Below are positions 11,552 to 31,762 of a stretch of 64,000 bases of DNA, piece by piece. Each line of letters starts with the position of its first letter. The stretch's first letter is position 1. A program made the position numbers and the translations under genes. Source of the DNA: Anaerolineae bacterium (GTDB taxonomy: Bacteria > Chloroflexota > Anaerolineae > UBA1429); assembly GCA_963675785.1 (NCBI GenBank), contig OY776562.1, positions 2,112,001 through 2,176,000 of the forward strand, written 5' to 3'. Below the pieces are notes generated by a model. It searched no databases. It was not told where the DNA came from and worked only from the letters and a program-made list of their open reading frames with translations.

Positions 11552-13585
11552 ATGCCCGTCGTTCCTTGGGAATGTGAAACAAATCCAGCCGATATGCACT
11601 GCAATCACATGGATCAATGGCAGATCGACTTGGCTGAACACAAAACCTCAGCCTTGTTAGTTGTGCGCCACAATCGTATCGTACACGAGTGGTACGCTCC
11701 CGAATGCGGCCCCGACGTGCCCCATTACACCGCTTCCCTAGCCAAAGCCCTGGTGGGAGGCACCTCCCTCGGCTTGGCGATAGCAGACGATCTCATCTCA
11801 CCAGACAACCTCGCTTGCCAATACATTCCGGCCTGGCGCGTTGATCCCCTCCGTTCCAAGATCACCATTGCGCAGTTGGCCAGTCATTCTTCTGGCCTGG
11901 AGGATGCCGAAACGCTAGGCAAGGGTCACATGGATCAGGACGGCTGGAAAGAAGCCTTTTGGAGGCGTGATCCCGATCCATTTACCATCGCCCGAGATCA
12001 GGCGCCAGTAAGCTTTGAGCCGGGCTCAGCTTACGCCTACAGCAACACGGGTATGGCCATGCTGGCCTATGCCGTAACAGCCTCCCTCCCCGCGAATCAA
12101 AGCATTCGTGAACTGCTCGAGGAGCGCCTGATGACACCGCTGGGTATCCCTCAGGAGAATTGGCAGATCGGCTACGGTACCACCTACGAAATCGACGGCC
12201 TGCGCCTCAATGCTAACTGGGGCGGTGGCAGCTACACTGCCCGAGCGGTGGCCCGTGTCGGACAATTGATGCTGGATCAGGGGCGTTGGGGAAACCAGCA
12301 GCTCATCTCGGCCGAAACTGTGCGACGTATGCTACGGTCCGTGGGCGCTCCTCGGCCGCCACGGGCAGAGGAACTACACATCCCCACACCGGGATTAGGC
12401 TGGTGGTTGAATATCGACGGCACTTGGCCTAACTTGCCACGCGACGCTTTTGCTGGTGCTGGCGCTGGCCAGCAGATTTTACTGGTGGTGCCCTCACTTG
12501 ATTTGGTAGTCGTGCGTTTGGGTGAGGCCTTTACTGGTGGGTTCCGTCATGATGCCTTTTGGCCCGATGTCAATCGCTATCTGATAGAACCTCTTCTCGA
12601 TTCGCTCAAGCCAGTGATGACACCAGTCGACAAGCTGCCCTACCCCGCTAGCCCAGTCATTCGCGGCATCAATTGGGCTCCCATCAACTCGATGGTGCGC
12701 CAGGCTTACGATAGCGACAACTGGCCCACCACCTGGGGCGACGATGATCGCATCTACACCGCTTATGGCGATGGCTGCGGCTTTGCACCTTATGTCGATC
12801 ACAAGATCGGGCTGGGCTTTGCCGCCATCTCGGGCACACCCGATAATCCCCTCGGTGAGAACATTCGCTCTGCCAGCGGCGAAAACGAGGGCATGGGGGC
12901 CAATGGCATCAAAGCTTCGGGCATAGTGATGATTGATGGCGTGCTCTACATGCTGGGGCGCAACGCTGGTAACGCTATCGTCGCCCGCTCTACCGACCAT
13001 GCGCGCACCTGGGAATGGGCAGACTGGCGTTTCGAGACGAGCTTTGGCTATCCGGGATTCGTCAATTTCGGGCGCAACTATGCCAGCGCCCGCGATGAAT
13101 ACGTCTATATCCATTCATCCGATGGCGATTCAGCTTATCTCCCCACTGACCAGATGGTGCTGGCGCGCGTACCTCGTGAACGCATCATAGAACAAGAAGC
13201 CTATACCTTTTGCGCCGGATTGAAGGATGGTCAACCACGGTGGTCCGCCGATATAGCCGAACGTGCGCCTATTTTTATCAATCCCGGCCGATGTAGCCGC
13301 TCTAGCATGGTTTACAACGTCGGCCTCGGGCGCTATTTATGGTGGCAGGTGCTTACCATCGGCCAAGAACCAGGGCCGCGATTTTGTGGTGGTTTTGCCG
13401 TGTATGACGCTCCCGAACCTTGGGGGCCTTGGACCACCGTCTATAGTGCTGACCAGTGGGATATAGGCCCTGGTGAGATGGGCGGCTTTCCTGCCCGCTG
13501 GATGAGCGAGGATGGCAGAGAATGCGCCTTGGTTTCCTCAGGCAATGATTACTTTAGCGTCAGAAAACTGCGCTTACTCTGTTAA
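11552..13585 (+). CDS. Beta-lactamase-family serine hydrolase fused to a DUF4185-like C-terminal domain
   Basis: N-half has SLAK (SxxK), YSN and GAGAGQQ..VVPSLDLVVVR. C-half has SDNWPTTW, YGDG, STDHARTW and APEPWGPW. The C-domain assignment is from motif recall. Confidence 0.75.
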   Translation: MPVVPWECETNPADMHCNHMDQWQIDLAEHKTSALLVVRHNRIVHEWYAPECGPDVPHYTASLAKALVGGTSLGLAIADDLISPDNLACQYIPAWRVDPLRSKITIAQLASHSSGLEDAETLGKGHMDQDGWKEAFWRRDPDPFTIARDQAPVSFEPGSAYAYSNTGMAMLAYAVTASLPANQSIRELLEERLMTPLGIPQENWQIGYGTTYEIDGLRLNANWGGGSYTARAVARVGQLMLDQGRWGNQQLISAETVRRMLRSVGAPRPPRAEELHIPTPGLGWWLNIDGTWPNLPRDAFAGAGAGQQILLVVPSLDLVVVRLGEAFTGGFRHDAFWPDVNRYLIEPLLDSLKPVMTPVDKLPYPASPVIRGINWAPINSMVRQAYDSDNWPTTWGDDDRIYTAYGDGCGFAPYVDHKIGLGFAAISGTPDNPLGENIRSASGENEGMGANGIKASGIVMIDGVLYMLGRNAGNAIVARSTDHARTWEWADWRFETSFGYPGFVNFGRNYASARDEYVYIHSSDGDSAYLPTDQMVLARVPRERIIEQEAYTFCAGLKDGQPRWSADIAERAPIFINPGRCSRSSMVYNVGLGRYLWWQVLTIGQEPGPRFCGGFAVYDAPEPWGPWTTVYSADQWDIGPGEMGGFPARWMSEDGRECALVSSGNDYFSVRKLRLLC

Positions 13586-13646: not shown

Positions 13647-14696
13647 ATGGAGCACATGATGCGATTCAAACGTTTATTGCTCATAGTCATTCTAGCAGGA
13701 ACGACGCTCATCAGCGCTGCCTGCGGTCAGGTTTCACAAACAACACAGCAAGGCGATATTACGACGCCTACGGCTCTTGCAACCGAAACGCCCGCTACGG
13801 TCATCGCTGAAGATCAACCCTGGACGCTGACCGTCATCCATAGTAACGACACCATGGGGCAGATGGTCCCCAGTGGTTGAAGCGACCCCTGCGGGGGGCT
13901 GGCTCGGAGAGCCGGCGTAATTGCTGAAACTAAAGCTGCTGCCGAAGGCATTGTTCTCGTACTAGATGCGGGAAGCTCGCTAATGGGTACAGATATCTCT
14001 CTGGAGACCGAAGGACTTGCTGTAGCCGAACCTATGGCTGCCATGGGCTATGATGCCATGGCCATTGGTGTCATGGACGCGGTCAAGGGACTCGATGCAT
14101 TGCGGGCCGTGGAAGAAACGGGCCTTACACTGCTTAGTGCCAACATCGTTGATGCGACGACGGGGGATTTGGTCTTTACGCCCTACGTTTTGCTGGAAGA
14201 ACAGGGAAAAACCATCGCCCTGTTGGGGCTTTCGGATGATGATGTCCTGTTGGCACCCGGCATGGATGGTGTCATTGATATTCTCGATCCCATCGAGCAA
14301 GCCAAGGCTTTAGTGTCTGAACTAGCCGAACAGGCGGATATCATCGTGGTCATCTCGCACCTCGGCGTTGATCTTGACGAACAGTTAGCTGCGGCGGTGC
14401 CCGATATTGACATCGTCATTGGCGGCAACTCGCAAAACATTCCCGACCAACCCGAAATCGTCGGCAGCACTGTGATGGCACGTATAGAAGCCTATGGTTC
14501 CTATGTAGGCCGCTTGACGGTCAAGTTCTCGGCCGATAATGCCATTACGGATGTGGGTGCAGAGGCCATCCATTTAGATAGCACGATTCCAGAAGACTCG
14601 AATGTAGCAGCCATTGTACAAAAGTGGGTCGATCTATACCCGACACCGACGGCTGATCCGGCAATCACCGAGACGCCAGCCGCTATCACATACTAA
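13647..14696 (+). CDS. UshA/5'-nucleotidase-like lipoprotein, probable selenoprotein (in-frame UGA at 13878-13880)
   Basis: ORFs 13647..13880 and 13983..14696 share a frame. Read-through gives HSNDTMGQMVPSG-U-SDPCGGLARRAGVI...LVLDAG. Lipobox ISAAC is present. Start may be 13656 or 13659. Confidence 0.85.
13898..13916 (+). promoter_or_regulatory. Candidate bacterial SECIS hairpin
   Basis: GCTGGCTC-GGA-GAGCCGGC; the G-initiated loop starts after a 25 nt spacer from the UGA. Confidence 0.65.
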
Positions 14697-14725
14697 AAAA
14701 GAGGGGGCTTAAAGCCCCCTCTTTT
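14697..14725. terminator. Bidirectional intrinsic terminator
   Basis: AAAAGAGGGGGCT-TAA-AGCCCCCTCTTTT between convergent genes. Confidence 0.9.
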
Positions 14726-15823
14726 CTACCCTTTGCGCACTGGCAGGGTTGAGCCGCAGCTCTGGCGTTGTATTACGCGCCCCCCCACATGCACCGTATC
14801 CACCTCTTGTTCCAAGAGCAACCCCTTAACTTGCCGGGCCACCGCAGTGGCTAAACCGTCCAAGTCAAAACGTACCGAAGTAATCGGTGTTGGAGCTACG
14901 CTGCACAAGTTATCATCACCCATGCCAACCACAGCCACATCGCGCGGACATGCCCGGCCAATGTTCGTCAATGCCGATATAACCTGCAACGCATAGATAT
15001 CATGCGAGCAAAAGACGGCTGTCGGCCCATCTTCACTGGCAAATAGCGTTTCCAGCCGACTAACAAAGGTCGAACTCCCCGGCTGGCCCGTAATCACCCA
15101 CTCGAGAGAGACGTCAGCACCGTGATCCCAGAGCGTGTTGGCATAGCCCCAATACCGCCTGTCGCCGGATACACTGGTTGGCTCTGCGCCAACATAAGCG
15201 ATCCTCCTGTGCCCCAAAGAAAGCAGGTGCGCAGTAATAGTAGCCGCGCAGATATCCTCATCCAATACGACAGCCGGCACATCAATACCGTCGATATCGC
15301 GCAGAATCAGGATAATCGGCAAAGGGCTTTGTTCCACAAGACCGCCAAATCGATCTGATAGTCCAGAACTCTCGCCCTGAACAAGTATCAAGGCGGCGAC
15401 ATGCTGCTCGGCAGCAGCGACGTACAGAGCGTCCTCCAGCTCGTCCCAGTTACCTTCCAATGTGCGCAACACCACTTGCAGATCCGCATCTCCCAGAGCA
15501 TGCATCATAGCCTGCAAGAGCCCAATGGGAAGTGCATCGAGGCGATCCGGCACCAATAAACTCACTGTCCCTGTTCGTGATCCAGACTGAGGATGTTCAG
15601 AAATGAACCACCCCAACCCATGGCGGCTAACCACAATGCCGTCATGTTTGAGTTCACGCAAGGCACGGCGCACTGTGATCTGGCTCACACCATAGGCATC
15701 ACAGAGTGCGTGTTCGCTCGGAAGTCTATCTCCCGCTTGCAAGCGACCAGATTCCACCTTGTCGGCAATGTCATCCGCAACCCAGCGATAGAGCGGACCA
15801 GAAGGCCGTTCGGTCATGACCAT
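14726..15823 (-). CDS. GntR-HTH plus LacI-type sugar-binding domain regulator (AraR-like)
   Basis: GDRLPSE..YGVSQITVRRAL at the N-terminus; HLLSLGHRRIAY, PTAVFCSHD and DVAVVGMGD at the C-terminus. Confidence 0.9.
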   Translation of the reverse strand: MVMTERPSGPLYRWVADDIADKVESGRLQAGDRLPSEHALCDAYGVSQITVRRALRELKHDGIVVSRHGLGWFISEHPQSGSRTGTVSLLVPDRLDALPIGLLQAMMHALGDADLQVVLRTLEGNWDELEDALYVAAAEQHVAALILVQGESSGLSDRFGGLVEQSPLPIILILRDIDGIDVPAVVLDEDICAATITAHLLSLGHRRIAYVGAEPTSVSGDRRYWGYANTLWDHGADVSLEWVITGQPGSSTFVSRLETLFASEDGPTAVFCSHDIYALQVISALTNIGRACPRDVAVVGMGDDNLCSVAPTPITSVRFDLDGLATAVARQVKGLLLEQEVDTVHVGGRVIQRQSCGSTLPVRKG

Positions 15824-15866
15824 GAGCTCCCTCCCCAGACCAAACCAGCACTAGATGAAACAAACT

Positions 15867-18164
15867 TTAATCCACACGCCCCTGACGTGCTGAGAACCAG
15901 CGATAATCAATGTTCAAAAAGACTTTGTCGAGTTCATATAGTTCTTCAACAAAACTCGTATCAATATCAGCATGCTCAACTGCATCAGCAAGCTGATTAA
16001 AGCGCACCACATGTGATTCGAACCGCTCTATAGCGTACTCTTTGGCCTGCCCAGTGGTGATCAAAAAAGGCCAGTCACTAGATTCGAGGAGCAACAATTC
16101 GCGTGCAGCCTGATCAAGCGCCCATCGCTCATCGCCTATCGCGTCAGGATGCTCGGCACAAAGCCGTTCCATCCTGGTTTCAGCCGCATGAATCGGCTCC
16201 CACACCCAATGTGTGTCGTCATTATCCCAGGTCCAATGGGTTCCGCCCGCTCCCCAGGAACTCTCAGGAAGCGCCATGACCTCTTCGGGCGGGTTGATCT
16301 CGAGATATTCGCTGGCCGTCACCAAGTCTACCTCGTCGTCCTCAGCCAGGTTTCGCAGAACCTCGCGAATCCAGGTAACACCCTCGAACCACCAGTGGCC
16401 AAAGAGCTCGGTATCATAGTTTGAAGCCACTAGACCATATTGACCAGTCTTTTCGTGATTTTCGACCAACAGCTCGTGCACAAGCGAAGCATAGTGTTTT
16501 GCGTGGCTTATTACCTTGTTCTCGGCCCAATCGGGGTGATACCAGTCTTTGGAACCCAATTCGGTACGGGGACCGGTAACGCGCCAGTACTGCAAACCCG
16601 ATTCAGGGTCTTTTTGATGGAATTCGCGATAATCCTGATCACCAGGATAGCCCCAATCCGCCGACCAAACTTGCTGACCCGTACGATTGTTGCGCCCAAT
16701 GGCTGCAACTGGCGGATCGACTAGCCCGTTGGTGTTGCCCATCACCCAATAGGCAGAGAAAGTGGTGCCACCACTGGTGTTGCTTTCAGCCATGGGTATA
16801 ACATAATGGCGCTTGATCATGCCATAGGGGCCAATGGCAGTTTCGCCGGCAGCCTTACCCACAGGCATACCACCCTCAATGGCGTGCGTCTCCACAAAGA
16901 AACAGGTAATACCTTGCGCCGAGAGAAACTCTTCGATGCCCGGGCGCACCGTACCGTCGTCATCCACAAAAGCTGGCCTATAGGCACATTCGGGCAGCCA
17001 GATGGCACGAGGTGCCTTGCCGAAATGACGCATATAGCTGGCAATTCCCGTACGAAGCTGGCCATAAATAGACGAATCGCGCCCCAGCAGCGGCAGATAG
17101 CCGTGGGTTGCCGCAGAACAAATGATCTCGATCAGCTCCTCATCCTGCAGTTGGCGGAATGCGCCGATCACATCGCTCTTGAAACGGTCCAAAAAGGCGT
17201 TATGTACCTTGCGGTAATAGTCACGATAAAAGGTGGCCAGATATTCGGCGTGCTCGTCACCCTCTTCGCCAAAGCGGGGGATATCTGCTTCGGCAGAAGC
17301 GATCTCTTGATCCAAATAGGTGACAAAATGGGCTTTGATGTCGGCATCGGCCAGTTGCTCGGTGAGAACCGGCGTAATGCCGATAGTCAAGCGAAAATCA
17401 ATACCCTCATCGCGAAGGTCATAGAGGGCCATAAGCAAGGGAATATACGTCTCGGCCAGGGCTTCGTGCAGCCACTCTTCTCCGTGGGGCCACATGCCCG
17501 CCCGTCGGCAATAAGGCAAATGGCTGTGCAGTACGAACGTAAACGCCCCTGCCGCCTGACCGGGGGTGTTGCGTGGTTTTAGGGCCTTGATCGGAGCCGG
17601 GACAATTGAATTGTTTGCAGACCGAAAAGCCCCCTGAACGAGCTGCTCTTTGAGATTCAGTGTCCACTCGATATCGATGCGAACACGTCCTGCAAGATGG
17701 CGCCAAACGGCATCCAGTGCCAAACCGGGCCCAGGCTGCGCCTGATAGGAGCGCGACATATGCTCAATGCGCACAAGTTCATCTTCTAGGTGCTCTAACC
17801 GGCGATCGAGGAGAGCAGCAAGTTCATCCTCAGGCAGCAAATCGATGAATGAGGCCGCCGCATCCTGAGGTACGCCTCCCAGCGCTGTTTCCTGCCAGGC
17901 ATCTCGCAGCAAATCCTGAAGAACCAGTCCACCCTGGTCAGTAATCTGATAAACATTGCGAGCTGGGCGGCCCTGTGCAGCCTCAACGCCAGACTTGACG
18001 ATCAGGCCTTCATCGGACATACGCGCCAATTGGGCATAGAGCGAGGCCGATGGCACGGTCGCCCAGTCACGGTAAGCATCGCTTTCCAGCGTTTTCTTGA
18101 TCTGGTATCCATACATCTCGCCCCGGGCTAGCAAACCTAGAATCAAAGTACGTACTTGCGACAT
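15867..18164 (-). CDS. PadR-family regulator fused to a GH57 1,4-alpha-glucan branching-type enzyme
   Basis: N-terminus has ILGLL..MYGYQI..SLYAQL..GLI..RNVYQITDQG. From about aa 205 come FVLHSHLPY, ATHGYLPLL, WLPECAY, YDTELFGHWWFEG and SSDWPF. One uninterrupted ORF; AAGGAG RBS before ATG 18164. Confidence 0.9.
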   Translation of the reverse strand: MSQVRTLILGLLARGEMYGYQIKKTLESDAYRDWATVPSASLYAQLARMSDEGLIVKSGVEAAQGRPARNVYQITDQGGLVLQDLLRDAWQETALGGVPQDAAASFIDLLPEDELAALLDRRLEHLEDELVRIEHMSRSYQAQPGPGLALDAVWRHLAGRVRIDIEWTLNLKEQLVQGAFRSANNSIVPAPIKALKPRNTPGQAAGAFTFVLHSHLPYCRRAGMWPHGEEWLHEALAETYIPLLMALYDLRDEGIDFRLTIGITPVLTEQLADADIKAHFVTYLDQEIASAEADIPRFGEEGDEHAEYLATFYRDYYRKVHNAFLDRFKSDVIGAFRQLQDEELIEIICSAATHGYLPLLGRDSSIYGQLRTGIASYMRHFGKAPRAIWLPECAYRPAFVDDDGTVRPGIEEFLSAQGITCFFVETHAIEGGMPVGKAAGETAIGPYGMIKRHYVIPMAESNTSGGTTFSAYWVMGNTNGLVDPPVAAIGRNNRTGQQVWSADWGYPGDQDYREFHQKDPESGLQYWRVTGPRTELGSKDWYHPDWAENKVISHAKHYASLVHELLVENHEKTGQYGLVASNYDTELFGHWWFEGVTWIREVLRNLAEDDEVDLVTASEYLEINPPEEVMALPESSWGAGGTHWTWDNDDTHWVWEPIHAAETRMERLCAEHPDAIGDERWALDQAARELLLLESSDWPFLITTGQAKEYAIERFESHVVRFNQLADAVEHADIDTSFVEELYELDKVFLNIDYRWFSARQGRVD

Positions 18165-18178
18165 GAGCACTCCTTGCT

Positions 18179-18225
18179 AATAGTCCAAGTTAGACTATTT
18201 TAGGCCAGGCACTGTGCAATGACAA
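18179..18225 (-). promoter_or_regulatory. Promoter with overlapping palindromic operator
   Basis: TTGTCA-17-TAAAAT (18225-18197); palindrome AATAGTC-N7-GACTATT (18179-18199) covers part of the -10 and the +1 region. Confidence 0.75.
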
Positions 18226-18344
18226 ACCTCTGCGCGAGAACATGGCGCTATTCTACACAGTATTGTTGCATTCGTCCATGCCAATTTAACTTTTGTCCTT
18301 GATTCTGCCAACATGAAACACTATCCTCTCAAGAGGGAGAAGCT

Positions 18345-20582
18345 ATGAAACCACAGATCATCGGACATATGACGGATAAAAGCCCTAACGGCCAATTCGA
18401 GATAGAACGCGTCGTATACGAAAACGAGGAAAACGGCTGGGCCGTGCTGCGTATGGTACCGCTTGATTCGCCTGCCGCCCTGCCTGTCACCGCCGTTGGA
18501 AACGTACCCAACCCCGTAGCAGGTGCCTGTTACGATATTGAAGGCGAGTGGCAGAAATCCAAGGAGCACGGCTACCAGGTTCAGATCAAGTCAGCCAAGC
18601 CCTTTGTTCCCGCCACAGTTCAAGGTATTGAGCGCTATCTGGCCAGCGGCGCCATTCCCGGCGTCGGTAAACATTATGCCCATTTGCTGGCAGAGAATTA
18701 CGGCAGTGATACTCTGGCCATATTGGATGCTGGCGCACCCAATATGGAAGATATTTCGGGCATCGGCAAAAAACGAGCCGCCCTTATCCGCCAAGCCTGG
18801 CTAGAAAACCGCCACACCCACAGCATAATGGAACGCCTGCAAGGTGAGGCTGGTCTTTCTGCGCGCCAGGCGCAAACCTTGTACAAAGAACTCGGCGATC
18901 AGGCCTGGGAAAAAGTTCGCAGCAATCCCTATCGCCTGCAAGATATTCTGGCTGGTGTGGGTTTTAAGACCTGCGATAAGATTGCCCGCAATATGGGATT
19001 GGGGCTCAACGATCCAGCTCGAATCCGCGCTGGCCTGCTTTACGTGTTAGAAGAAGCCTTGCACAAAGGCGATCTATGGCTCCCCGAAGAGGCCATCAAA
19101 GCCCAAGCTACCGACTTGCTTCAACTTTCTACTGAGGAAATCGAGACTACATTTACCGGCATGGTCGCGCAGGAAGACTTGATCCTGGAAGTGCAAGAAG
19201 GCCAAAGTGCTGTCTATCTAGCGCGCGTCTATTATACCGAAACCCGCATCGCCGATGATCTAGCACAGTTGTTAGCTTCGCCACGGCCTTTACGAGCAAT
19301 GTCTCGCACCAAAGCGGAAGAACTAGTGGACCGTCTGCAAGAGTTTCCTCTCACCGAAGCGCAGCACAATGGTATAGTCGAAATCCTCTGCGGTGCACCT
19401 CTGCACGTCATCACCGGTGGGCCGGGAACCGGCAAAACCACCGTCATGCGCACGCTCATCCGCTGTCTGGAAGACCAAGCCATCGAGTATGCATTGTGTG
19501 CCACCACAGGCAGAGCCAGCAAACAGTTGGAATCAGCCACGCAACGACCCGCTGCCACCGTACACCGCCATCTCAAGCTAGGCACGCCCGGCGAGCCCGA
19601 GCCTCTTTACGAGGATATTCTCATCATCGATGAATCCTCAATGATCGATCTCTGGCTCATGGCCGAGATCAGCCAACGGCTTAGGATTGGGCAGCAGTTG
19701 GTGTTGGTGGGGGATATCGATCAACTCCCCTCCGTGGGACCAGGTACTGTCTTGCAAGACATCATCCAAGCTGGCGCTAGCTGCCCCGGCATCTCTGTGA
19801 CCCGGCTGGACACCATCTTTCGCCAGGAAAAGGGCAGCGAGAGTCTCATCGTCACCAACTGCCACCGCATCCGCCAGGGAGAACTGCCCATCAAAGGCGA
19901 CAGCGAAGCCGACTATTTCGAGATGTCCCGCGATTCAGCAGAGCAGGCCCGTGACCTGGCCATCGAACTGGTTACGCGACGCCTCCCTGCCTATCTGGAT
20001 ATCGACCCCTTGCAGATTCAGTTGCTGGCCCCCATGCACCGCGGCACAGCCGGCATTGCAGCGCTGAATACCGAACTTCAGCAGAAACTCAATCCACCAG
20101 CCCCTAGAAAACCCGAAGTCATCCTCACCCACGGAGGCGAAGGGCCCGCGCGCGTCTTTCGACTGGGTGACAAGGTGCGGCAGACACGCAACAACTATCA
20201 GAAGCAAGTGCTCAACGGAGATATCGGCCTCATCGATTCAGTCAGTACGGCGAATCGACAGATCACGGTGCGCTTTGATAATCAGCTCGTACCCTACGAG
20301 GCAGACGAATTGCTCGAGCTGGTTCACAGTTGGGCTATGACCGTCCATGCTGCCCAGGGATCGCAATGGCCGGCGGTGGTCATTCTGATGATTTCCGAAC
20401 ATTATGTCATGCTGGAGCGCAACATCTTGTACACGGCCCTCTCTCGTGCCGAACGATTAGCCGTACTGGTCAGCGATGCTCGGGCTGTAGGCATAGCCGT
20501 CAAGCGTCAGCACGCCCTCGATCGTCACAGTGGCCTGGCTCAGAGAATTGTGCAGGCTACTGCGCAAGCAGCCGCTTACTGA
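18345..20582 (+). CDS. recD2: RecD2-like SF1B DNA helicase
   Basis: N-terminal YENEENGWAV and HhH repeats, GGPGTGKTT, IIDESSM, GDIDQLPSVGPG, IFRQ and NGDIG motifs. Confidence 0.9.
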   Translation: MKPQIIGHMTDKSPNGQFEIERVVYENEENGWAVLRMVPLDSPAALPVTAVGNVPNPVAGACYDIEGEWQKSKEHGYQVQIKSAKPFVPATVQGIERYLASGAIPGVGKHYAHLLAENYGSDTLAILDAGAPNMEDISGIGKKRAALIRQAWLENRHTHSIMERLQGEAGLSARQAQTLYKELGDQAWEKVRSNPYRLQDILAGVGFKTCDKIARNMGLGLNDPARIRAGLLYVLEEALHKGDLWLPEEAIKAQATDLLQLSTEEIETTFTGMVAQEDLILEVQEGQSAVYLARVYYTETRIADDLAQLLASPRPLRAMSRTKAEELVDRLQEFPLTEAQHNGIVEILCGAPLHVITGGPGTGKTTVMRTLIRCLEDQAIEYALCATTGRASKQLESATQRPAATVHRHLKLGTPGEPEPLYEDILIIDESSMIDLWLMAEISQRLRIGQQLVLVGDIDQLPSVGPGTVLQDIIQAGASCPGISVTRLDTIFRQEKGSESLIVTNCHRIRQGELPIKGDSEADYFEMSRDSAEQARDLAIELVTRRLPAYLDIDPLQIQLLAPMHRGTAGIAALNTELQQKLNPPAPRKPEVILTHGGEGPARVFRLGDKVRQTRNNYQKQVLNGDIGLIDSVSTANRQITVRFDNQLVPYEADELLELVHSWAMTVHAAQGSQWPAVVILMISEHYVMLERNILYTALSRAERLAVLVSDARAVGIAVKRQHALDRHSGLAQRIVQATAQAAAY

Positions 20583-24439: not shown

Positions 24440-25585
24440 TTGCAAGAGATACCGACTGGCATATCTCAAAACATGGCAGGGCAGCCACATTCTACCGCCT
24501 TCACAGGGCATGAACAGAATCTGTCTCAGCAAGAAAGTATTGCTCTCCACCTCTTACAAAGCCTGCCACAGGGCGTCGCTGCTGTAAACCGCGAATCCGA
24601 GCTGCTGTGCATCAACAAGACGCTCCTAGATCTTGTTGGGTTGCACGACTTGGAAATATCTCTGCCCATCAAGATCAATTGTTATGACTTGCCCGAACCA
24701 CTACGTATTTTGCTCAGCCCTTGTGCGCAGAACATTATCGGCCCTTACGAAATGAAAACCTCAGAACTAGAATGGCCAACTCCAGAACGTATCCTGCGGG
24801 TCGAACCACTCGAAATGTACGCCGACTCGGTATGTGTCATGGTTCTTGTAACTGACGTAACACCGGAAAGAATCGCCGAAAGCGCCCGTGCAGAGTTCAT
24901 GTCACAAATTGCCCACGAACTACGCACGCCGTTGCAGCACATCATGGGTTTTGCCGGTATTATGAATGATATAGAGGACTTGGAACCCGGCGACTATCAG
25001 CACTTTTCGGCTCAGATCAACAGCGAAACCAAGATTATGGCGCGTCTGATTAGTGACCTCGCAGAACTTTCACTCATTACCGGCGGTCGCTTTATAATTG
25101 AACGTGAGCCAATTGACCTGGCGTCTCTGGTTCGGGAAATGACCTCTCGAACTCAACCGAGCGCGCGCGATCACGATCTTGAATTGGATTGTGTCGTTCC
25201 TCCAAGGGCTGTGCCCATTTATGGTGATGCGGTTCGCCTGAGCCAGGTGCTGGCGAACCTTTTGGAGAACGCGATCAAGTACGTGCCTGCTGGCGGGCAG
25301 GTTCATGTTACTCTTCAAATCATTGAAGGTCACGCCGTTGTATCAGTAGCAGATACGGGCAAAGGCATTCCCGCTGATGCAGTAGAGCACGTTTTCGATC
25401 AGTTCTTCCAAGTTCCCCAGTCCGGAGGAAATCGTTCTCATCGGGGAATGGGTCTTGGACTCTATATCAGCCGTGAGATCATCCATGCGCACGACGGCCG
25501 CATTTGGGTAGAAAGCGAACAAGGCAAAGGAAGCACCTTTGCCTTTAGCCTGTCACTTATGCCAGAGAGTGAGGCAAAATCATGA
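24440..25585 (+). CDS. Soluble PAS-like sensor histidine kinase
   Basis: AHELRTPL H-box, NLLENAIKY, DTGKGI and GMGLGL motifs; no clear transmembrane segment. Confidence 0.93.
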   Translation: MQEIPTGISQNMAGQPHSTAFTGHEQNLSQQESIALHLLQSLPQGVAAVNRESELLCINKTLLDLVGLHDLEISLPIKINCYDLPEPLRILLSPCAQNIIGPYEMKTSELEWPTPERILRVEPLEMYADSVCVMVLVTDVTPERIAESARAEFMSQIAHELRTPLQHIMGFAGIMNDIEDLEPGDYQHFSAQINSETKIMARLISDLAELSLITGGRFIIEREPIDLASLVREMTSRTQPSARDHDLELDCVVPPRAVPIYGDAVRLSQVLANLLENAIKYVPAGGQVHVTLQIIEGHAVVSVADTGKGIPADAVEHVFDQFFQVPQSGGNRSHRGMGLGLYISREIIHAHDGRIWVESEQGKGSTFAFSLSLMPESEAKS

Positions 25586-26724
25586 GCCATCGCGTCCTTA
25601 TTATCGATGACGACCCAACGCTAGTCGAGATGTTGATCTTTGTACTCTCTCGAGGTGGTTATGAAACCAGGGCAGCTACCAATGGCGCCGATGCCTTGGA
25701 AATCCTAAAATCGACACACATTGATGCGATTGTACTTGATGTGATGCTGCCCGATGTGGATGGATATCAAATCTGCCGCAACATCCGTGCCCTACCCGGC
25801 ATTGCTGATATCCCCATTCTGATGCTCAGCGCACGCTCTCAGGTAGAATATCGCCTCACGGGTTTTGAAAGCGGCGCAGATGACTATGTGCCCAAACCAG
25901 CGGATCCCAAAGAAGTGCTGGCACGCATCCATGCACTCATTGCTCGAGCTGAACGAGCACAAGTCGCTCCGTCACCAGTGATTGGCTTGGTCGGCGTTAA
26001 GGGAGGCGTAGGCACCACCACCCTTTTGATCAACACGGCGCTTGCCCTGGTAGAGGATAAAAAGCGCGTGTGTTTGATGGAGTTGTCGGACCACGGCTAT
26101 GATGGGGCCTGGCGTCTTGGCATGGGCACTGGCCAACCGCTCATAGAGCTAAACATCCCTGCCAGTGGAAGAGTAACACCTGCTGCCATTCAGTCTTGCA
26201 TCATCAAACACAACAGCGGCATTCATTATATGCCCTTGTGCACACAGCAACCAGACAAGCGCAGTTTTGCTGAAGGTGTTCTCACCAAAACCATAGAGAC
26301 GCTGCAAACATCCTATGACATCATCCTCTTGGATGTCCCGCCAAGTGCCCTGGCTTTATACCCAGAGTTGATTACGACCGTTGGTGCCTTTATTCCCGTT
26401 GCCGAGAGAGATGACCTCTGCATTTGGCACTTGAGTGCCTTTGTCAGATGGCTGCAAGACCAACATGCGAACGTCCCAGGATCCGTCCTTGTGGATCGTA
26501 CTATCGAACCTTCGCGCGACTCGGCTTCTTCAACCGCCAGCAAGATCGGTCTGGCCGTGTTGGCACTCATCCCGCCCATGCCGCTGGCCATGTTCCACGC
26601 AGACAACCTGCAAACGCCGCTATACATGAGCGACTCAACCAACCTGGCTTCAGAAGCCTATGCTGAATTCGCAACCCGATTGATTACAGATCCCATTGAA
26701 GGCCCTGCTGATATGCGTCCCTAA
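25582..26724 (+). CDS. Response regulator receiver fused to a CpaE/MinD-like P-loop domain
   Basis: IIDDD, LDVMLP and VPKP receiver motifs, then GVKGGVGTTT and YDIILLDVP; ATGA overlap with the kinase. Confidence 0.85.
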   Translation: MSHRVLIIDDDPTLVEMLIFVLSRGGYETRAATNGADALEILKSTHIDAIVLDVMLPDVDGYQICRNIRALPGIADIPILMLSARSQVEYRLTGFESGADDYVPKPADPKEVLARIHALIARAERAQVAPSPVIGLVGVKGGVGTTTLLINTALALVEDKKRVCLMELSDHGYDGAWRLGMGTGQPLIELNIPASGRVTPAAIQSCIIKHNSGIHYMPLCTQQPDKRSFAEGVLTKTIETLQTSYDIILLDVPPSALALYPELITTVGAFIPVAERDDLCIWHLSAFVRWLQDQHANVPGSVLVDRTIEPSRDSASSTASKIGLAVLALIPPMPLAMFHADNLQTPLYMSDSTNLASEAYAEFATRLITDPIEGPADMRP

Positions 26725-26796: not shown

Positions 26797-28347
26797 CTAT
26801 TGCAGGGGTTCCTCATACTCGATTTCGGCAGAGTCGGTGCCTGTGAGGGTAACATCAGGCGGCACCCAGCGACCGGTAAACTCAGCCAGATCGCGAATAG
26901 CCCGTTGCAGGCCCTCATTAAGTTGCCCGGCCTCAAAACGCCAAGCCCAATTGCCCTCTGGTTCTCCCGGTTTGTTCAAACGAGCCTCGGCACCCAGGCC
27001 AAACAGATCTTGCAACGGTGTGATAGCCATACTGGCAACTGACGTGTACACCAACCGCATCAGAGCCCACACCACACCATTGTTATCGCAGCCACCATAA
27101 ACACGTACCTTGTGCTGGGTAGCAGCATCCAGCTCGGAAAACCATCCGCGGGTTGTATCATTATCATGGGTGGCGGTATAGGCCACACAGTTCACAGGGT
27201 GATTGTGCGGCAGATGCGGGTCGGCCGAATCACCGTAAAAACCAAACTGTAACACACGCATACCTGGCAAGCCCAAGCTATCGCGCAGATCATGGACATC
27301 CTGAGAAATCAGGCCCAAATCCTCAGCGATGATGGGCAAATCACCAAGGTGTGCCTTTATCGCATCAAAGAGAGCCTTGCCCGGCCCTTTGACCCAGCGG
27401 CCATTGAGCGCTGTCTTTTCAGCAGCAGGAACCTGCCAATAGCCAGAAAACCCTCGGAAATGATCTAGTCGAACCTTATCAACGCGACGTAGCGTCTGCT
27501 CCAGCCGCATCAACCACCAGTCATAGCTGCGTTCTGCCATACGGTCCCAACGATAAAGAGGATTGCCCCACAACTGGCCCGTTGCTGCAAAACGATCGGG
27601 GGGCACACCAGCCACCACCGTGGGACGACCCGTCTCATCCAGATAAAAGAGGGATTGATTAGCCCAAACGTCCGAGCTCTCATGGCCCACAAAGATGGGA
27701 ATGTCGCCTATGATGCTAATTCCCCGCTCAGTAGCATAGTCATGCAAGGCCGTCCACTGCCGGTCAAACAGAAATTGCAAAAAACACTCGTAACCGATCT
27801 CATCAGCAAGTTTCTCACGCCAGTTCACCAAAGCAGCGGGATCATGTTGGGCCAGCTCAGTTGGCCACTCTGTCCAGTTTACCCACTGAAAATACCGTTC
27901 CGCAGCCATAAATAGGCAATAATCATCCAGCCAGGCAACTTCTCGTCTGATAAAAGCCTGCAGAGCGCCCTGCAGTGGATGGGCGGAATCCTTTGAAAAG
28001 GCCTGCCAGGCCTGGCGAAATAGCGCCGTTTTGGCTGGAATGACTGCGCTGTAATCTACCTGGCCAGAAGAAAAGTGTGGATAGGCCTCAAGATCGCCTT
28101 CCGTCAGCAAACCTTCTTCTAGCAAAAGCTGCGGGCTGATCAGGAGCCAGTTCCCAGCAAAAGCCGAAAAAGGTTGATAGGGAGAATTGCCATAGCCAGT
28201 AGGGCCCAAAGGGAGTATTTGCCACAATGTTTGCCCGGCATCAACAAGCCAATCGACAAACTCGAAAGCCTGCTGGCCGAGATCGCCAATACCGAATGGA
28301 CCGGGCAAACTGGTAGGGTGTAAGAGTATGCCGCACTGCCGATTCAT
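26797..28347 (-). CDS. malQ: 4-alpha-glucanotransferase (GH77 amylomaltase)
   Basis: GILLHPTSLP, GQLWGNPLY, RLDHFRGF, AEDLG and THDNDT motifs. Confidence 0.95.
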   Translation of the reverse strand: MNRQCGILLHPTSLPGPFGIGDLGQQAFEFVDWLVDAGQTLWQILPLGPTGYGNSPYQPFSAFAGNWLLISPQLLLEEGLLTEGDLEAYPHFSSGQVDYSAVIPAKTALFRQAWQAFSKDSAHPLQGALQAFIRREVAWLDDYCLFMAAERYFQWVNWTEWPTELAQHDPAALVNWREKLADEIGYECFLQFLFDRQWTALHDYATERGISIIGDIPIFVGHESSDVWANQSLFYLDETGRPTVVAGVPPDRFAATGQLWGNPLYRWDRMAERSYDWWLMRLEQTLRRVDKVRLDHFRGFSGYWQVPAAEKTALNGRWVKGPGKALFDAIKAHLGDLPIIAEDLGLISQDVHDLRDSLGLPGMRVLQFGFYGDSADPHLPHNHPVNCVAYTATHDNDTTRGWFSELDAATQHKVRVYGGCDNNGVVWALMRLVYTSVASMAITPLQDLFGLGAEARLNKPGEPEGNWAWRFEAGQLNEGLQRAIRDLAEFTGRWVPPDVTLTGTDSAEIEYEEPLQ

Positions 28348-28370
28348 AAAACCCTCCCGAGTAAAACTGT

Positions 28371-28399
28371 TTGACAGAGCATTGCCCAAAGCCTAGAAT
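28371..28399 (+). promoter_or_regulatory. Sigma70-type promoter of the CDF gene
   Basis: TTGACA-17-TAGAAT; 8 nt separate the -10 from ATG 28408. Confidence 0.8.
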
Positions 28400-30340: not shown

Positions 30341-30463
30341 GACACGAGTGAGAGTATAGCACCAACATGATGAACAGGCAAATGAAAACCGCTCGGTAAC
30401 TTGCTTTTCATGAGCAATTTACAATGTTATAATGCCGACACTGGATGCAAGCAGGCAGGCACA

Positions 30464-31762
30464 ATGGACAAAAGCAACATGGCGCAGCAGAAATCATCAA
30501 CATGGCTTGAGAGAGTCGTGTCTCGTTGCGTCGCCTCCTTGGGCAGCTTGCGCGCCACTGAGCATTTTCCCATTGCAACCAGGCGCGGACTTGTTTTAGG
30601 TGCGCTAAGCCTTGGCCTAACCGGCCTGATCTTGGGTATCCTCCTAGGAAGTGCCAATCGAGGTCTTGTGGGAGCATTTGTCGGTGCCGTCAGTGCAGCA
30701 GCATTGGGCATTCTTGGCGGAGCGCTTATCGGGGGCATTCTGGGACGAACCCTGTTCCCCACAGAAGATGATGTGGATGTCTCTATCGAATTTGAACGCC
30801 CCGAACGCCTTTATGCAGCTGGCGATCTCATACGCGGCTACATTGCCGTCAAAGGCAGCAAAAAAATAAGACTGTTGGGCGGGACTACTTGCCTCTGGGG
30901 ACGACGTTTTTACACTTATGACACCCTGGTTGACGAAGAAAGTGCTGCACGCGACATGGTGCAGGAACCCTACGAGCTTCACCTGGAACACACCCGCTCT
31001 ATCCCCGAAAGAAAACTCGGACGTAACGTGCTGCTTCGCTATCCCTTTGAGTTTCGTATCCCCCAGGATGCTGCACCCAGCCAGCACGGCCAGATCGTCT
31101 CCATCCGCTGGCAGGTACTGGCCGAAATTGAACTACCCTATCTATCGTCGCTTATTGCACGTAGTGAAGTGTTTATCAGTGCTCCCCCACCCGCCGTACC
31201 GGATGTGGTCAGCCAGTATCGATCGCTAACCTCCGCCGAACCCTGCCAACTACTGCTCTCTATGCCTAGGGTAGAATTCTGGCCGGGCGAGACGATAGAC
31301 GCGAATATAAGGCTAGCATCCAGACGCTCTTTTGCGGCCACCAGCATTCGCGCAGTGCTATACAGAGTCGAGCACATTGCTCAGGGTGACCCCCATGTGA
31401 TCTATGTCTCAGAATGGGATCTCGCCAGCGGCCGCTTTGAAGGGCAACGCTGGCCTGCACAAGAAGGCACAACCTATATCTGGCTGGAGGATGAGTTCGT
31501 CCTCGGTGAAGAACTGGCCATCGACGACCAAGAAATGCTCATCTATGCTTTTTCCTTGCATATACCCGAACGATTCTGCCCCACAGTCCGCGGCGTGCCC
31601 TCTGTTACGTGGAAACTGGGCGTCATTGTCGAACAACCCTCAGGAGAGGCAAACGTACGCGTCTTTCACGAAGTAATCGTCTCAACCTGGCTTGATAGCC
31701 TCATCAAGCCCGAAAAACCTGCTTCTCAGCCCCAAATTACCCTCCGCAGGGTATCTCGATAG
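30464..31762 (+). CDS. Membrane-anchored protein with tandem arrestin/Spo0M-like domains
   Basis: Two Gly-rich TM segments, then two repeats of the pattern Y/FxxG(D/E)xI...YxFxF/LxIP..P(S/T)..G..(I/V)xW. TGnTATAAT at 30425-30433 argues against the TTG 30401 start. Confidence 0.6.
   Translation: MDKSNMAQQKSSTWLERVVSRCVASLGSLRATEHFPIATRRGLVLGALSLGLTGLILGILLGSANRGLVGAFVGAVSAAALGILGGALIGGILGRTLFPTEDDVDVSIEFERPERLYAAGDLIRGYIAVKGSKKIRLLGGTTCLWGRRFYTYDTLVDEESAARDMVQEPYELHLEHTRSIPERKLGRNVLLRYPFEFRIPQDAAPSQHGQIVSIRWQVLAEIELPYLSSLIARSEVFISAPPPAVPDVVSQYRSLTSAEPCQLLLSMPRVEFWPGETIDANIRLASRRSFAATSIRAVLYRVEHIAQGDPHVIYVSEWDLASGRFEGQRWPAQEGTTYIWLEDEFVLGEELAIDDQEMLIYAFSLHIPERFCPTVRGVPSVTWKLGVIVEQPSGEANVRVFHEVIVSTWLDSLIKPEKPASQPQITLRRVSR

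Follow-up and report, generated by a model that had tools for sequence, protein, structure and literature searches.

A PadR repressor module fused to a GH57 alpha-glucan enzyme in Anaerolineae: a conserved architecture with a plausible regulatory function

Why should a PadR-type transcriptional repressor be joined in one polypeptide to an enzyme of alpha-glucan metabolism, and could the one function report on the other? The question is raised by a gene in a stretch of 64,000 nucleotides from an Anaerolineae bacterium (assembly GCA_963675785.1, contig OY776562.1, positions 2,112,001 to 2,176,000 of the forward strand), which we refer to as the window and whose own numbering is used throughout. 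The product of this gene combines an N-terminal PadR module with a C-terminal enzyme of glycoside hydrolase family GH57, and a preliminary inspection of the nucleotide sequence (the sequence-only reading) had taken it for a DNA-binding enzyme that couples glycogen or maltodextrin status to transcription. The comparisons described here indicate that the PadR-GH57 architecture is real, conserved and previously undescribed, and they make a regulatory function plausible. The reading we prefer, offered tentatively and as something we would not yet call probable, is that the fusion is an autorepressor resembling a trigger enzyme, with DNA binding competing with the binding of alpha-glucan.

One reading frame and its two modules

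The open reading frame (ORF) listing gives a single open frame on the reverse strand, 15867..18170 (-), of 767 aa when counted from a GTG at 18170. Because this GTG is covered by an AAGGAG ribosome-binding site (18170..18175, (-), read from the sequence), we favour the ATG at 18164, which sits 5 nt past AAGGAG and is the methionine at which homologues start in the alignment of fused proteins; the coding sequence is thus likely to be 15867..18164 (-), encoding 765 aa followed by a stop codon, in agreement with the single ORF of about 765 aa from which the sequence-only reading began. Three Pfam domains are matched along it: PadR (PF03551) at residues 10-84 (54.6 bits, cut-off 27), Glyco_hydro_57 (PF03065) at residues 211-635 (116.8 bits) and BE_C (PF09210) at residues 660-759 (107.6 bits). 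The two halves are separated by a proline-containing linker, residues 181-205 (17550..17624, (-)), which is the least conserved segment of the protein and has no in-frame start codon. Neither ATG, GTG nor TTG occurs from residue 169 to the leucine inside the HSHLP motif, and the earliest start-like codon past the linker is the TTG within HSHLP itself, which has no Shine-Dalgarno sequence; the intact enzyme therefore cannot be translated on its own, and the earlier description of a linker lacking a separate start (about 17540-17630, corresponding to residues 181-209 in the 767-aa numbering) is borne out.

An AlphaFold2 model of the fusion has a mean predicted local distance difference test score (pLDDT) of 77.5 and a predicted template-modelling score (pTM) of 0.77, the pLDDT falling below 50 over linker residues 182-192. 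Prediction of a complex between the GH57 part (residues 205-765) and the PadR part (residues 1-195) returned a score of 0.00, which says nothing for or against docking of the halves. In barrels of the (beta/alpha) type the N-terminus of a strand lies on the face opposite the catalytic residues, and we would therefore not expect the fusion to obstruct catalysis. The protein is predicted to be one bifunctional polypeptide, in which a PadR subfamily-1 module is connected by a flexible linker of about 25 residues to a GH57 body at its first barrel strand.

That this arrangement is an artefact, whether of misassembly, of a frameshift joining two genes or of a decaying pseudogene, can be regarded as excluded, and we leave it a negligible chance. 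Over 15800-18350 the contigs of runs X1, X4, X5 and X11, which come from four studies, show no insertion or deletion relative to the window, X11 covering only 14 of 30 bins. One X4 contig spans 17123-17828 without any difference and so bridges the linker, which is bridged also by X5 contigs spanning 15800-17579, 17550-17657 and 17628-18170; the check across the linker advised by the sequence-only reading thus revealed neither a stop nor a frameshift. Nineteen genomes, with 20 loci between them, and about 30 protein clusters have the same architecture, no relative has split, adjoining PadR and GH57 genes, and the catalytic motifs are all invariant among the fused proteins. Nothing was found in favour of an artefact. 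At codon 343 (17136-17138), ten residues ahead of the SAATHGYLPLL motif, the window strain does have Glu where 115 of the 118 related GH57 proteins, and 33 of 36 loci, have Gly. This is a true strain polymorphism, position 17137 being T (Glu) in runs X1 and X4 and C (Gly) in run X5, and among natural GH57 proteins Glu is shared at this position by P0067, P0090 and the fused protein of L005. The window protein further differs from its cluster representative by M552I (16509).

The N-terminal half consists of a winged helix-turn-helix (wHTH), residues 1-95 (17880..18164, (-)), identified by Pfam, by alignment to 5x11 and in the AlphaFold2 model, and of a PadR subfamily-1 C-terminal helical domain for dimerisation or effector binding, residues 96-180 (17625..17879, (-)), identified by alignment to stand-alone PadR proteins, by AlphaFold2 and by Foldseek. 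The modelled wHTH has helices at residues 2-13, 19-27 and 39-51, wing strands at 55-58 and 71-74, and a further helix at 76-91; the C-terminal domain is modelled as two long helices, 112-141 and 148-176. When residues 1-195 were used in an exhaustive HMMER search, 1928 matches at E<=0.001 were obtained, the best stand-alone PadR proteins being some 170-205 aa long, at most 36% identical and aligned across residues ~1-181. Since such proteins align from end to end, the module corresponds to a whole PadR protein and not just to its DNA-binding domain. An earlier comparison of residues 1-195 with shorter proteins gave no match among 1438 candidates, a limit of sensitivity given the relatives that HMMER later found. 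Among structures, 8jxk, 5x11, 3l9f and 1yg2 match at E 2e-8 to 1e-4, and Foldseek aligns the Bacillus subtilis PadR-operator complex (5x11_D) over 182 columns; PF10400 is matched by Pfam in relatives and not in the window protein.

In having a wHTH followed by a multi-helix domain with two long helices, the fusion resembles B. subtilis PadR (5x11) and Vibrio cholerae AphA (1yg2), and it differs from such subfamily-1 regulators in the 560-aa enzyme at its C-terminus, in its identity of no more than 36% and in a lower net charge. Residues 1-180 are accordingly predicted, from alignment and model, to form a complete PadR subfamily-1 repressor, and here the sequence-only reading holds, the end-to-end alignment being complemented by the AlphaFold2 model and by intact DNA-contact residues (see below). 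The fusion is the sole gene of PadR subfamily-1 type in the genome, the other PadR match having a frame of 129 aa.

The C-terminal half, residues 206-765 (15870..17549, (-)), comprises the GH57 (beta/alpha)7 catalytic body and the BE_C helical domain, as indicated by Pfam, NCBIfam, comparison with 3n8t and Foldseek. The motifs HSHLPY, SAATHGYLPLL, WLPECAY, NYDxELFGHWW and SSDWPF show no variation across the 29 fused proteins aligned; in the window enzyme they read HSHLPY, ..SAATHGYLPLL, WLPECAY, NYDTELFGHWW and SSDWPF, and they are identical in 3n8t, the Thermococcus kodakarensis branching enzyme TK1436. All three of the motifs that the sequence-only reading had cited (HSHLP, WLPECAY and YDTELFGHWW) are in the translation. 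We take Glu392 in WLPECAY (codon 16989..16991, (-)) to be the nucleophile, in conserved sequence region (CSR) III, and Asp584 in NYDTELFGHWW (codon 16413..16415, (-)) to be the acid/base, in CSR IV; both are invariant in 29/29, and the same motifs are present in 3n8t. Conserved sequence regions with the nucleophile in CSR III and the acid/base in CSR IV are a hallmark of GH57 (PMC6629080 and PMC9291813, each available in part).

The enzyme half matches TK1436 at E=4e-140, and with the AlphaFold2 model Foldseek gives target template-modelling (TM) scores of 0.83-0.87 to 3n8t, 5wu7, 1ufa and 3p0b. It shares with these branching enzymes (TK1436, 3n8t; Pyrococcus horikoshii, 5wu7; Thermus thermophilus, 1ufa and 3p0b) the conserved regions, the Glu and Asp motifs and a barrel with a C-terminal helical domain, and is 43% identical to both 3n8t and 5wu7 in structural alignment. 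It differs from them in its N-terminal PadR module, in a loop region about 24-25 residues longer than that of TK1436 and in NCBIfam scores below the equivalog cut-offs, which are not reached either for NF041133 (Thermococcales branching enzyme; 550.2 bits against 1000) or for NF041566 (Thermus branching enzyme; 500.7 bits against 920). It would thus be classed as a homologue, not an equivalog, of the Thermococcales and Thermus branching enzymes.

The loop region deserves closer attention. Relative to 3n8t the flexible loop is longer by 14 and 3 residues, with 7 more past the loop, and the beta5-beta6 region is 4 residues shorter; the segment VETHAIE..VAAIGRN has 55-58 aa in 29/29 fused proteins and 31 in 3n8t. 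We estimate the length of the flexible loop at about 36 aa, and AlphaFold2 has low confidence in this area (residues 430-448 and 459-465). According to the available part of PMC9291813, strong branching activity is associated with full beta5-beta6 strands and with 17-22 aa in the flexible loop that covers the cleft, the Thermoflexus hugenholtzii branching enzyme with its 36-residue loop has very low activity, and long-looped GH57 enzymes show little branching activity on amylose. The loop of the fusion lies outside the range given there for 'true' GH57 branching enzymes, and its length together with the short beta5-beta6 region resembles the T. hugenholtzii type, a likeness drawn from the published description and not from sequence. 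The enzyme half is best described as a putatively competent GH57 catalyst of the alpha-glucan branching type and of the long-loop kind, whose reaction in vivo may or may not be branching. The genome (one contig, 3.2 Mb) has no second GH57 and no GH13 GlgB (best score 48 bits against a cut-off of 464), so that the fusion is its sole branching-enzyme candidate; it also encodes a GT5 glycogen-synthase domain, MalQ (GH77) and an alpha-glucan phosphorylase, and has no GlgC above cut-off.

Distribution and the downstream regulator

Proteins combining PF03551 with PF03065 (and PF09210) form about 30 metagenomic clusters that are 37-51% identical across the first 260 residues, and the source names of the related proteins are Anaerolineae or Chloroflexi. 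When 301 genomes sampled evenly across the class were searched, only five of the 150 matches listed span the query from residue 2-3 to ~765, all of them from family f1, the window's own taxonomic family; the remaining strong GH57 matches listed start at residue 184-305. Some GH57 matches of the class (e.g. G209:C188:7190-9085 and G184:C400:2942-4831) are split between query residues ~205-302 and 304-763 in one frame with about 70 extra codons between, which suggests an insertion one third of the way into the barrel.

Within family f1, of which 42 genomes were searched with residues 1-260, the fusion is present in 19 genomes of 13 genera, at 20 loci, and the enzyme without PadR in 20 genomes of eight genera; three genomes gave no match to this query. 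Genera represented by more than one genome are each uniform in the fused or unfused state. The fused protein of genome G308 has an internal deletion, and genome G312 carries two copies of the fused gene with its AraR-type regulator (L090, G312:C26; L091, G312:C31), which, given an estimated contamination of the bin of ~9%, may represent two strains and not a duplication.

A GH57-domain tree, made with a quick IQ-TREE run, comprised 80 rows: 34 fused proteins, 23 loci of unfused genomes and 23 stand-alone proteins, the last being every fourth of P0032-P0120; four loci in which the motif was not located were left out. All 34 fused rows fall together with 13 unfused rows in one 47-row clade with 99% support. 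The tree as drawn requires four changes between the fused and unfused states and its well-supported branches force only one, so that a single origin of the fusion is compatible with the data, with gain and loss possible in either order. Upstream of the unfused GH57 genes there is no convincing PadR remnant (best E 7e-4 and 3e-3, mostly over the linker and the start of GH57), and a search with the full-length fusion found no stand-alone orthologue of the PadR module in the unfused f1 genomes. Long frames upstream of GH57 in G150, G041, G247, G060 and G178 were rejected as fusions, being high-GC read-through overlapped by ORFs on the opposite strand.

The fused gene is followed, 43 nt downstream of its stop codon and on the same strand, by a gene for a 365-aa chimeric regulator of AraR type (14726..15823, (-)), in which Pfam identifies a GntR wHTH (PF00392, 69 bits) and a LacI-type sugar-binding domain (Peripla_BP_3, PF13377, 100.8 bits; PF00532, 47.1 bits). 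AraR of B. subtilis has this same architecture, a GntR-type DNA-binding domain joined to a LacI-type effector domain, although the effector domain of the present regulator scores better to the CcpA/LacI type (~1e-15) than to that of AraR (3tb6; 8.8e-12). A bidirectional terminator-like hairpin found by sequence scan at 14702..14720, directly 3' of the regulator stop and assigned to neither strand, is likely to mark the end of a two-gene operon. An ORF of 237 aa at 13983-14696 (+), without a Pfam match, converges on this terminator, and relatives of it, 33-37% identical, adjoin the operon in L006, L007, L096 and L100.

A same-strand AraR-type regulator lies directly downstream at 15 of 18 fused loci, the exceptions being L101, L006 and L008; L008 has only ~1 kb of downstream DNA, and the G304 and G306 loci, cut by contig ends, were left out of the count. 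A regulator of this type also follows the unfused GH57 gene in L016, L030, L033 and L052, and a divergent RecD2 helicase gene, as in the window, is present in L030, L033, L051 and L052. Since the regulator stands beside the unfused enzyme too, the conserved unit is that of enzyme and regulator, to which PadR has been added or from which it has been lost; the association of the regulator with the enzyme appears to predate the PadR state or to be independent of PadR. The GntR-LacI gene was thus correctly placed by the sequence-only reading, and it does adjoin the fusion, but as a partner it is not specific to the fusion, following the unfused enzyme of family f1 as well. The malQ gene, noted earlier as lying about 9 kb away, is indeed there (GH77, 590 bits; 26797..28389, (-); 8.6 kb from the fusion start), but we reject it as a member of the unit: genes for RecD2, an amidohydrolase, ScpA, a GT4 enzyme, a histidine kinase and a response regulator, six unrelated genes in all, intervene, and it is not co-transcribed. 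Beside malQ and downstream of the histidine kinase gene, 25582-26724 (+) encodes a fusion of a response-regulator receiver with a ParA/BcsQ-like ATPase.

Candidate operator and modes of action

As an autorepressor, the protein might work as follows. The PadR part would dimerise via its two long C-terminal helices, and the dimer would bind a 21-bp palindrome between promoter and ribosome-binding site and repress the two-gene operon of fusion and AraR-type regulator. In the presence of linear or growing alpha-glucan, the polymer would be engaged by the enzyme halves and would pull the protein off the DNA. The protein would be shared out between its substrate and its operator, much as PutA is between membrane and DNA, and the amounts of enzyme and regulator produced would be proportional to the substrate; no allostery through the disordered linker would be needed. 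These steps, like the glucan sensing and the two-tier cascade proposed in the sequence-only reading, are what we infer from the features described below.

The residues expected to contact DNA are in place. Tyr20, Tyr42 and Lys67 are hot spots of PadR, conserved across the family as DNA-binding residues, and an Ala mutant of Tyr42 in the B. subtilis protein loses more than 100-fold in affinity (PMC5728393, available in part). Through the 5x11 alignment their equivalents in the window protein are Y20, Y43 and R69; at these three columns 28, 22 and 27 of the 29 fused proteins have Tyr, Tyr and Arg respectively, and 21 of them, the window protein included, have all three. Among fused proteins there is hardly any variation at W34, in the wing GRPAR..Y.IT..G or at R69. 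Over 406 pairs the mean pairwise identity falls from 0.705 in the GH57 half to 0.425 in the wHTH, 0.308 in the C-terminal domain and 0.167 in the linker, so that the PadR module, being better conserved than the linker in both its domains, is under constraint, although a far weaker one than that on the enzyme.

Binding to an inverted repeat in the promoter of the protein's own gene is known for PadR regulators (PMC5050560, available in part), and besides the hot-spot equivalents the fusion has a palindromic candidate site near its own promoter. A sequence scan identified at 18179..18199 (-) a near-palindrome of 10-1-10 form, AATAGTCTAAcTTGGACTATT, with the core TAGTC-N7-GACTA, which overlaps the last 3 nt of the -10 element of the best promoter-like sequence, P1 (TTGTCA-17-TAAAAT, 10/12; 18197..18225, (-); a consensus match only), and ends 3 nt ahead of the ribosome-binding site. 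Its 7-nt arms and 7-nt spacer differ from the ATGT-N8-ACAT of PadR. About 50 nt upstream of P1 is an alternative, P2 (TGGACG-17-TAGAAT, 9/12 by consensus match; 18250..18278, (-)), whose sequence TGTGTAGAAT resembles TGGTAGAAT, conserved upstream of fused genes in genus g7; with two promoter-like sites, transcription may start from either. Also in g7, a box GCGTCAAG(G/A)GTC is conserved about 45 nt upstream of the -35 element of the fused gene (L068, L070, L071, L073, L075 and L076), and in L030 an inverted repeat ahead of the unfused gene includes a similar GCGTCAAG; the AraR-type regulator may bind at this box, or the box may itself be a divergent promoter.

A number of points weigh against the autorepressor reading, and several concern the operator. 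The genome contains 1215 such palindromes, or 0.38 per kb, from which 0.066 are expected in the 174-nt spacer, and the palindrome taken alone is thus about a 1-in-15 event; its core occurs three times in the 3.2-Mb genome, compared with 2.6 expected by composition. In genus g7 (nine rows, three of which duplicate others, leaving six fused genomes) the promoter and ribosome-binding site are conserved and the stretch from the -10 to the ribosome-binding site is not. Loose promoter-proximal palindromes turn up at three of the five fused loci, and likewise in 10 of the 24 unfused-locus scans (L016 being entered twice) and in 33% of random windows; given this background level in controls and the lack of conservation in g7, palindromes at orthologues were rejected as operator evidence. 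The palindrome at 18179-18199 is accordingly a candidate operator only: of the protein's 'own operator', as the sequence-only reading put it, there is a palindrome, but one expected about 0.07 times by chance and not conserved in relatives.

Other such points lie in the protein. The Tyr42 equivalent has been lost, and the module kept, in 7 of 29 fused proteins (P0023, P0025, P0026, P0027, P0028, P0030 and P0031), and P0018, P0021 and P0022 have a 34-residue deletion in the C-terminal domain. The net charge of the wHTH (residues 1-90) averages -0.1 in fused proteins (n=22; 0 for the window protein), compared with +2.4 (sd 3.0) in 94 stand-alone relatives, a weak hint in view of the relatedness of the rows. 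As 20 of the 42 family genomes encode the enzyme with no PadR part, the module can be dispensed with. Lastly, the loop exceeds that of TK1436 by about 17 residues, and by the loop-length description in the available part of PMC9291813 the enzymatic role is uncertain. The proposal of a DNA-binding enzyme stands as regards a genuine single frame, and it is weakened by the 20 of 42 genomes without PadR and by the loss of the DNA-contact Tyr in seven of the 29.

Much of this bears on the main rival explanation, which we consider somewhat unlikely: that PadR has ceased to control genes, or never did so, and serves either as a dimerisation scaffold for two catalytic bodies, whose pairing would change product structure or processivity on glucan, or as a sensor of a small molecule through the interdomain pocket of PadR subfamily-1. 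The C-terminal domain with its two long helices (alpha6 and alpha7), which provides ~70% of a large dimer interface in subfamily-1 proteins (PMC5728393, available in part), is retained, and the faster evolution of the PadR part (identity 0.31-0.43 against 0.71 for the enzyme), its less positive wHTH, the proteins that keep the module without the Tyr42 equivalent and the absence of an operator conserved in g7 or above background at orthologues all fit it. If only the C-terminal helices mattered, however, the retention of three hot spots in 21 of 29 proteins and the near-invariance of W34, the wing and R69 would be unexpected; the wHTH is better conserved than the C-terminal domain, the 34-aa deletion falls in the would-be dimerisation domain of three proteins, and the window has a palindrome at the right place.

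The two other copies of the core motif raise a different alternative. They overlap, 18 nt apart, at L003:1501-1539 (G000:C1:1190558-1190596, outside the window), in the intergenic region between the gene for a zinc-ribbon Ser/Thr kinase (1130 aa) and an integrase-family gene, and lie 36-74 nt upstream of the -35 element of a perfect TTGACA-18-TATAAT promoter facing the kinase gene; the clustering of these sites is suggestive, their count is not. Rfam identified nothing at this locus. PadR might then bind DNA, not as a glucan-responsive autorepressor but at other targets such as the kinase gene, in response to a small PadR effector, or as a nucleoid tether, with the fusion merely coupling the expression of two functions, which we think improbable. 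The tandem sites upstream of the kinase promoter agree with this, as does the lack of a motif-like site (with up to 7 mismatches) within 400 nt of malQ, the GT5 synthase, the phosphorylase, an NTP-transferase, the GT4 gene or the regulator start. Agreeing with it too are PadR modules joined to a non-enzymatic partner, as would befit a portable N-terminal DNA-binding module: P0210, P0227 and P0238 (509-526 aa) have a related full-length PadR subfamily-1 N-terminus, 32-33% identical over residues ~2-175, and their partner is DUF4388 and not an enzyme of known activity. On the other hand the fusion's own promoter is one of only two loci bearing the motif, which fits autoregulation, and with a motif count equal to chance the kinase site may be unrelated. 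PadR modules of this type seem prone to N-terminal fusions. In P0219, two PadR units are found in tandem.

Neighbouring genes, related systems and significance

Elsewhere in the window, 30401-31762 (+) encodes a 453-aa arrestin-like protein (Arrestin_N, 5e-10, and a weaker Arrestin_C), and 11552-13585 (+) a 677-aa protein with a beta-lactamase-family domain and DUF4185.

The closest analogies to an autorepressing PadR-GH57 protein are the known fused trigger enzymes RbkR (wHTH and riboflavin kinase), BirA, NadR and PutA, which act in cofactor or vitamin and in amino-acid metabolism (PMC5397151, 2017, available in part). Like these, the fusion has an N-terminal (w)HTH and a metabolic enzyme with its catalytic residues in one polypeptide, so that an enzyme and a predicted DNA-binding domain are physically united, and its gene is placed where autoregulation is possible. 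The resemblance to RbkR extends to evolution: RbkR has undergone lineage-specific loss of its DNA-binding domain (PMC5397151, in part), and lineages related to that of the window have the enzyme without one. The fusion differs from all four in that its enzyme is a transferase of a glycoside-hydrolase family acting on a polymer and not on small molecules, and in that its predicted DNA-binding part is a whole two-domain PadR subfamily-1 protein.

The sequence-only reading knew of no described PadR-GH57 fusion, and we found no paper on this architecture in the full-text literature searched, a coverage that excludes most subscription journals. A co-occurrence of 'PadR' and 'GH57' in PMC12619756 was discarded, 'PadR' there being the surname Padra, and neither 'PadR' nor 'helix-turn-helix' occurs in 300,000 characters of a Chem Rev review of alpha-glucan enzymes, the portion of that text that was available.

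The most far-reaching possibility, and an unlikely one, is that this is the first trigger enzyme of a storage polysaccharide, a protein that partitions between a glycogen-like polymer and its own operator and thereby sets the expression of itself, of the AraR-type regulator and possibly of the Ser/Thr kinase gene. Should DNA binding fail, the fusion would still document the recruitment of a regulator fold as an accessory domain of an enzyme. It also bears on a question posed in the available part of PMC9291813, that of the role in vivo of long-looped GH57 'branching enzymes', as the long-looped enzyme is here the only branching candidate beside a glycogen-synthase domain, MalQ and phosphorylase. 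Family f1 offers a natural experiment, with sister genera carrying the same operon with and without the PadR module, and competition between polymer and DNA offers a simple mechanism. Few enzymes double as transcription factors, and a repressor fused to a polymer-acting enzyme of a glycoside-hydrolase family would extend the trigger-enzyme principle to carbon-storage polymers; if the proposal is correct, the enzyme that makes the glucan store would itself give the cell a direct reading of that store.

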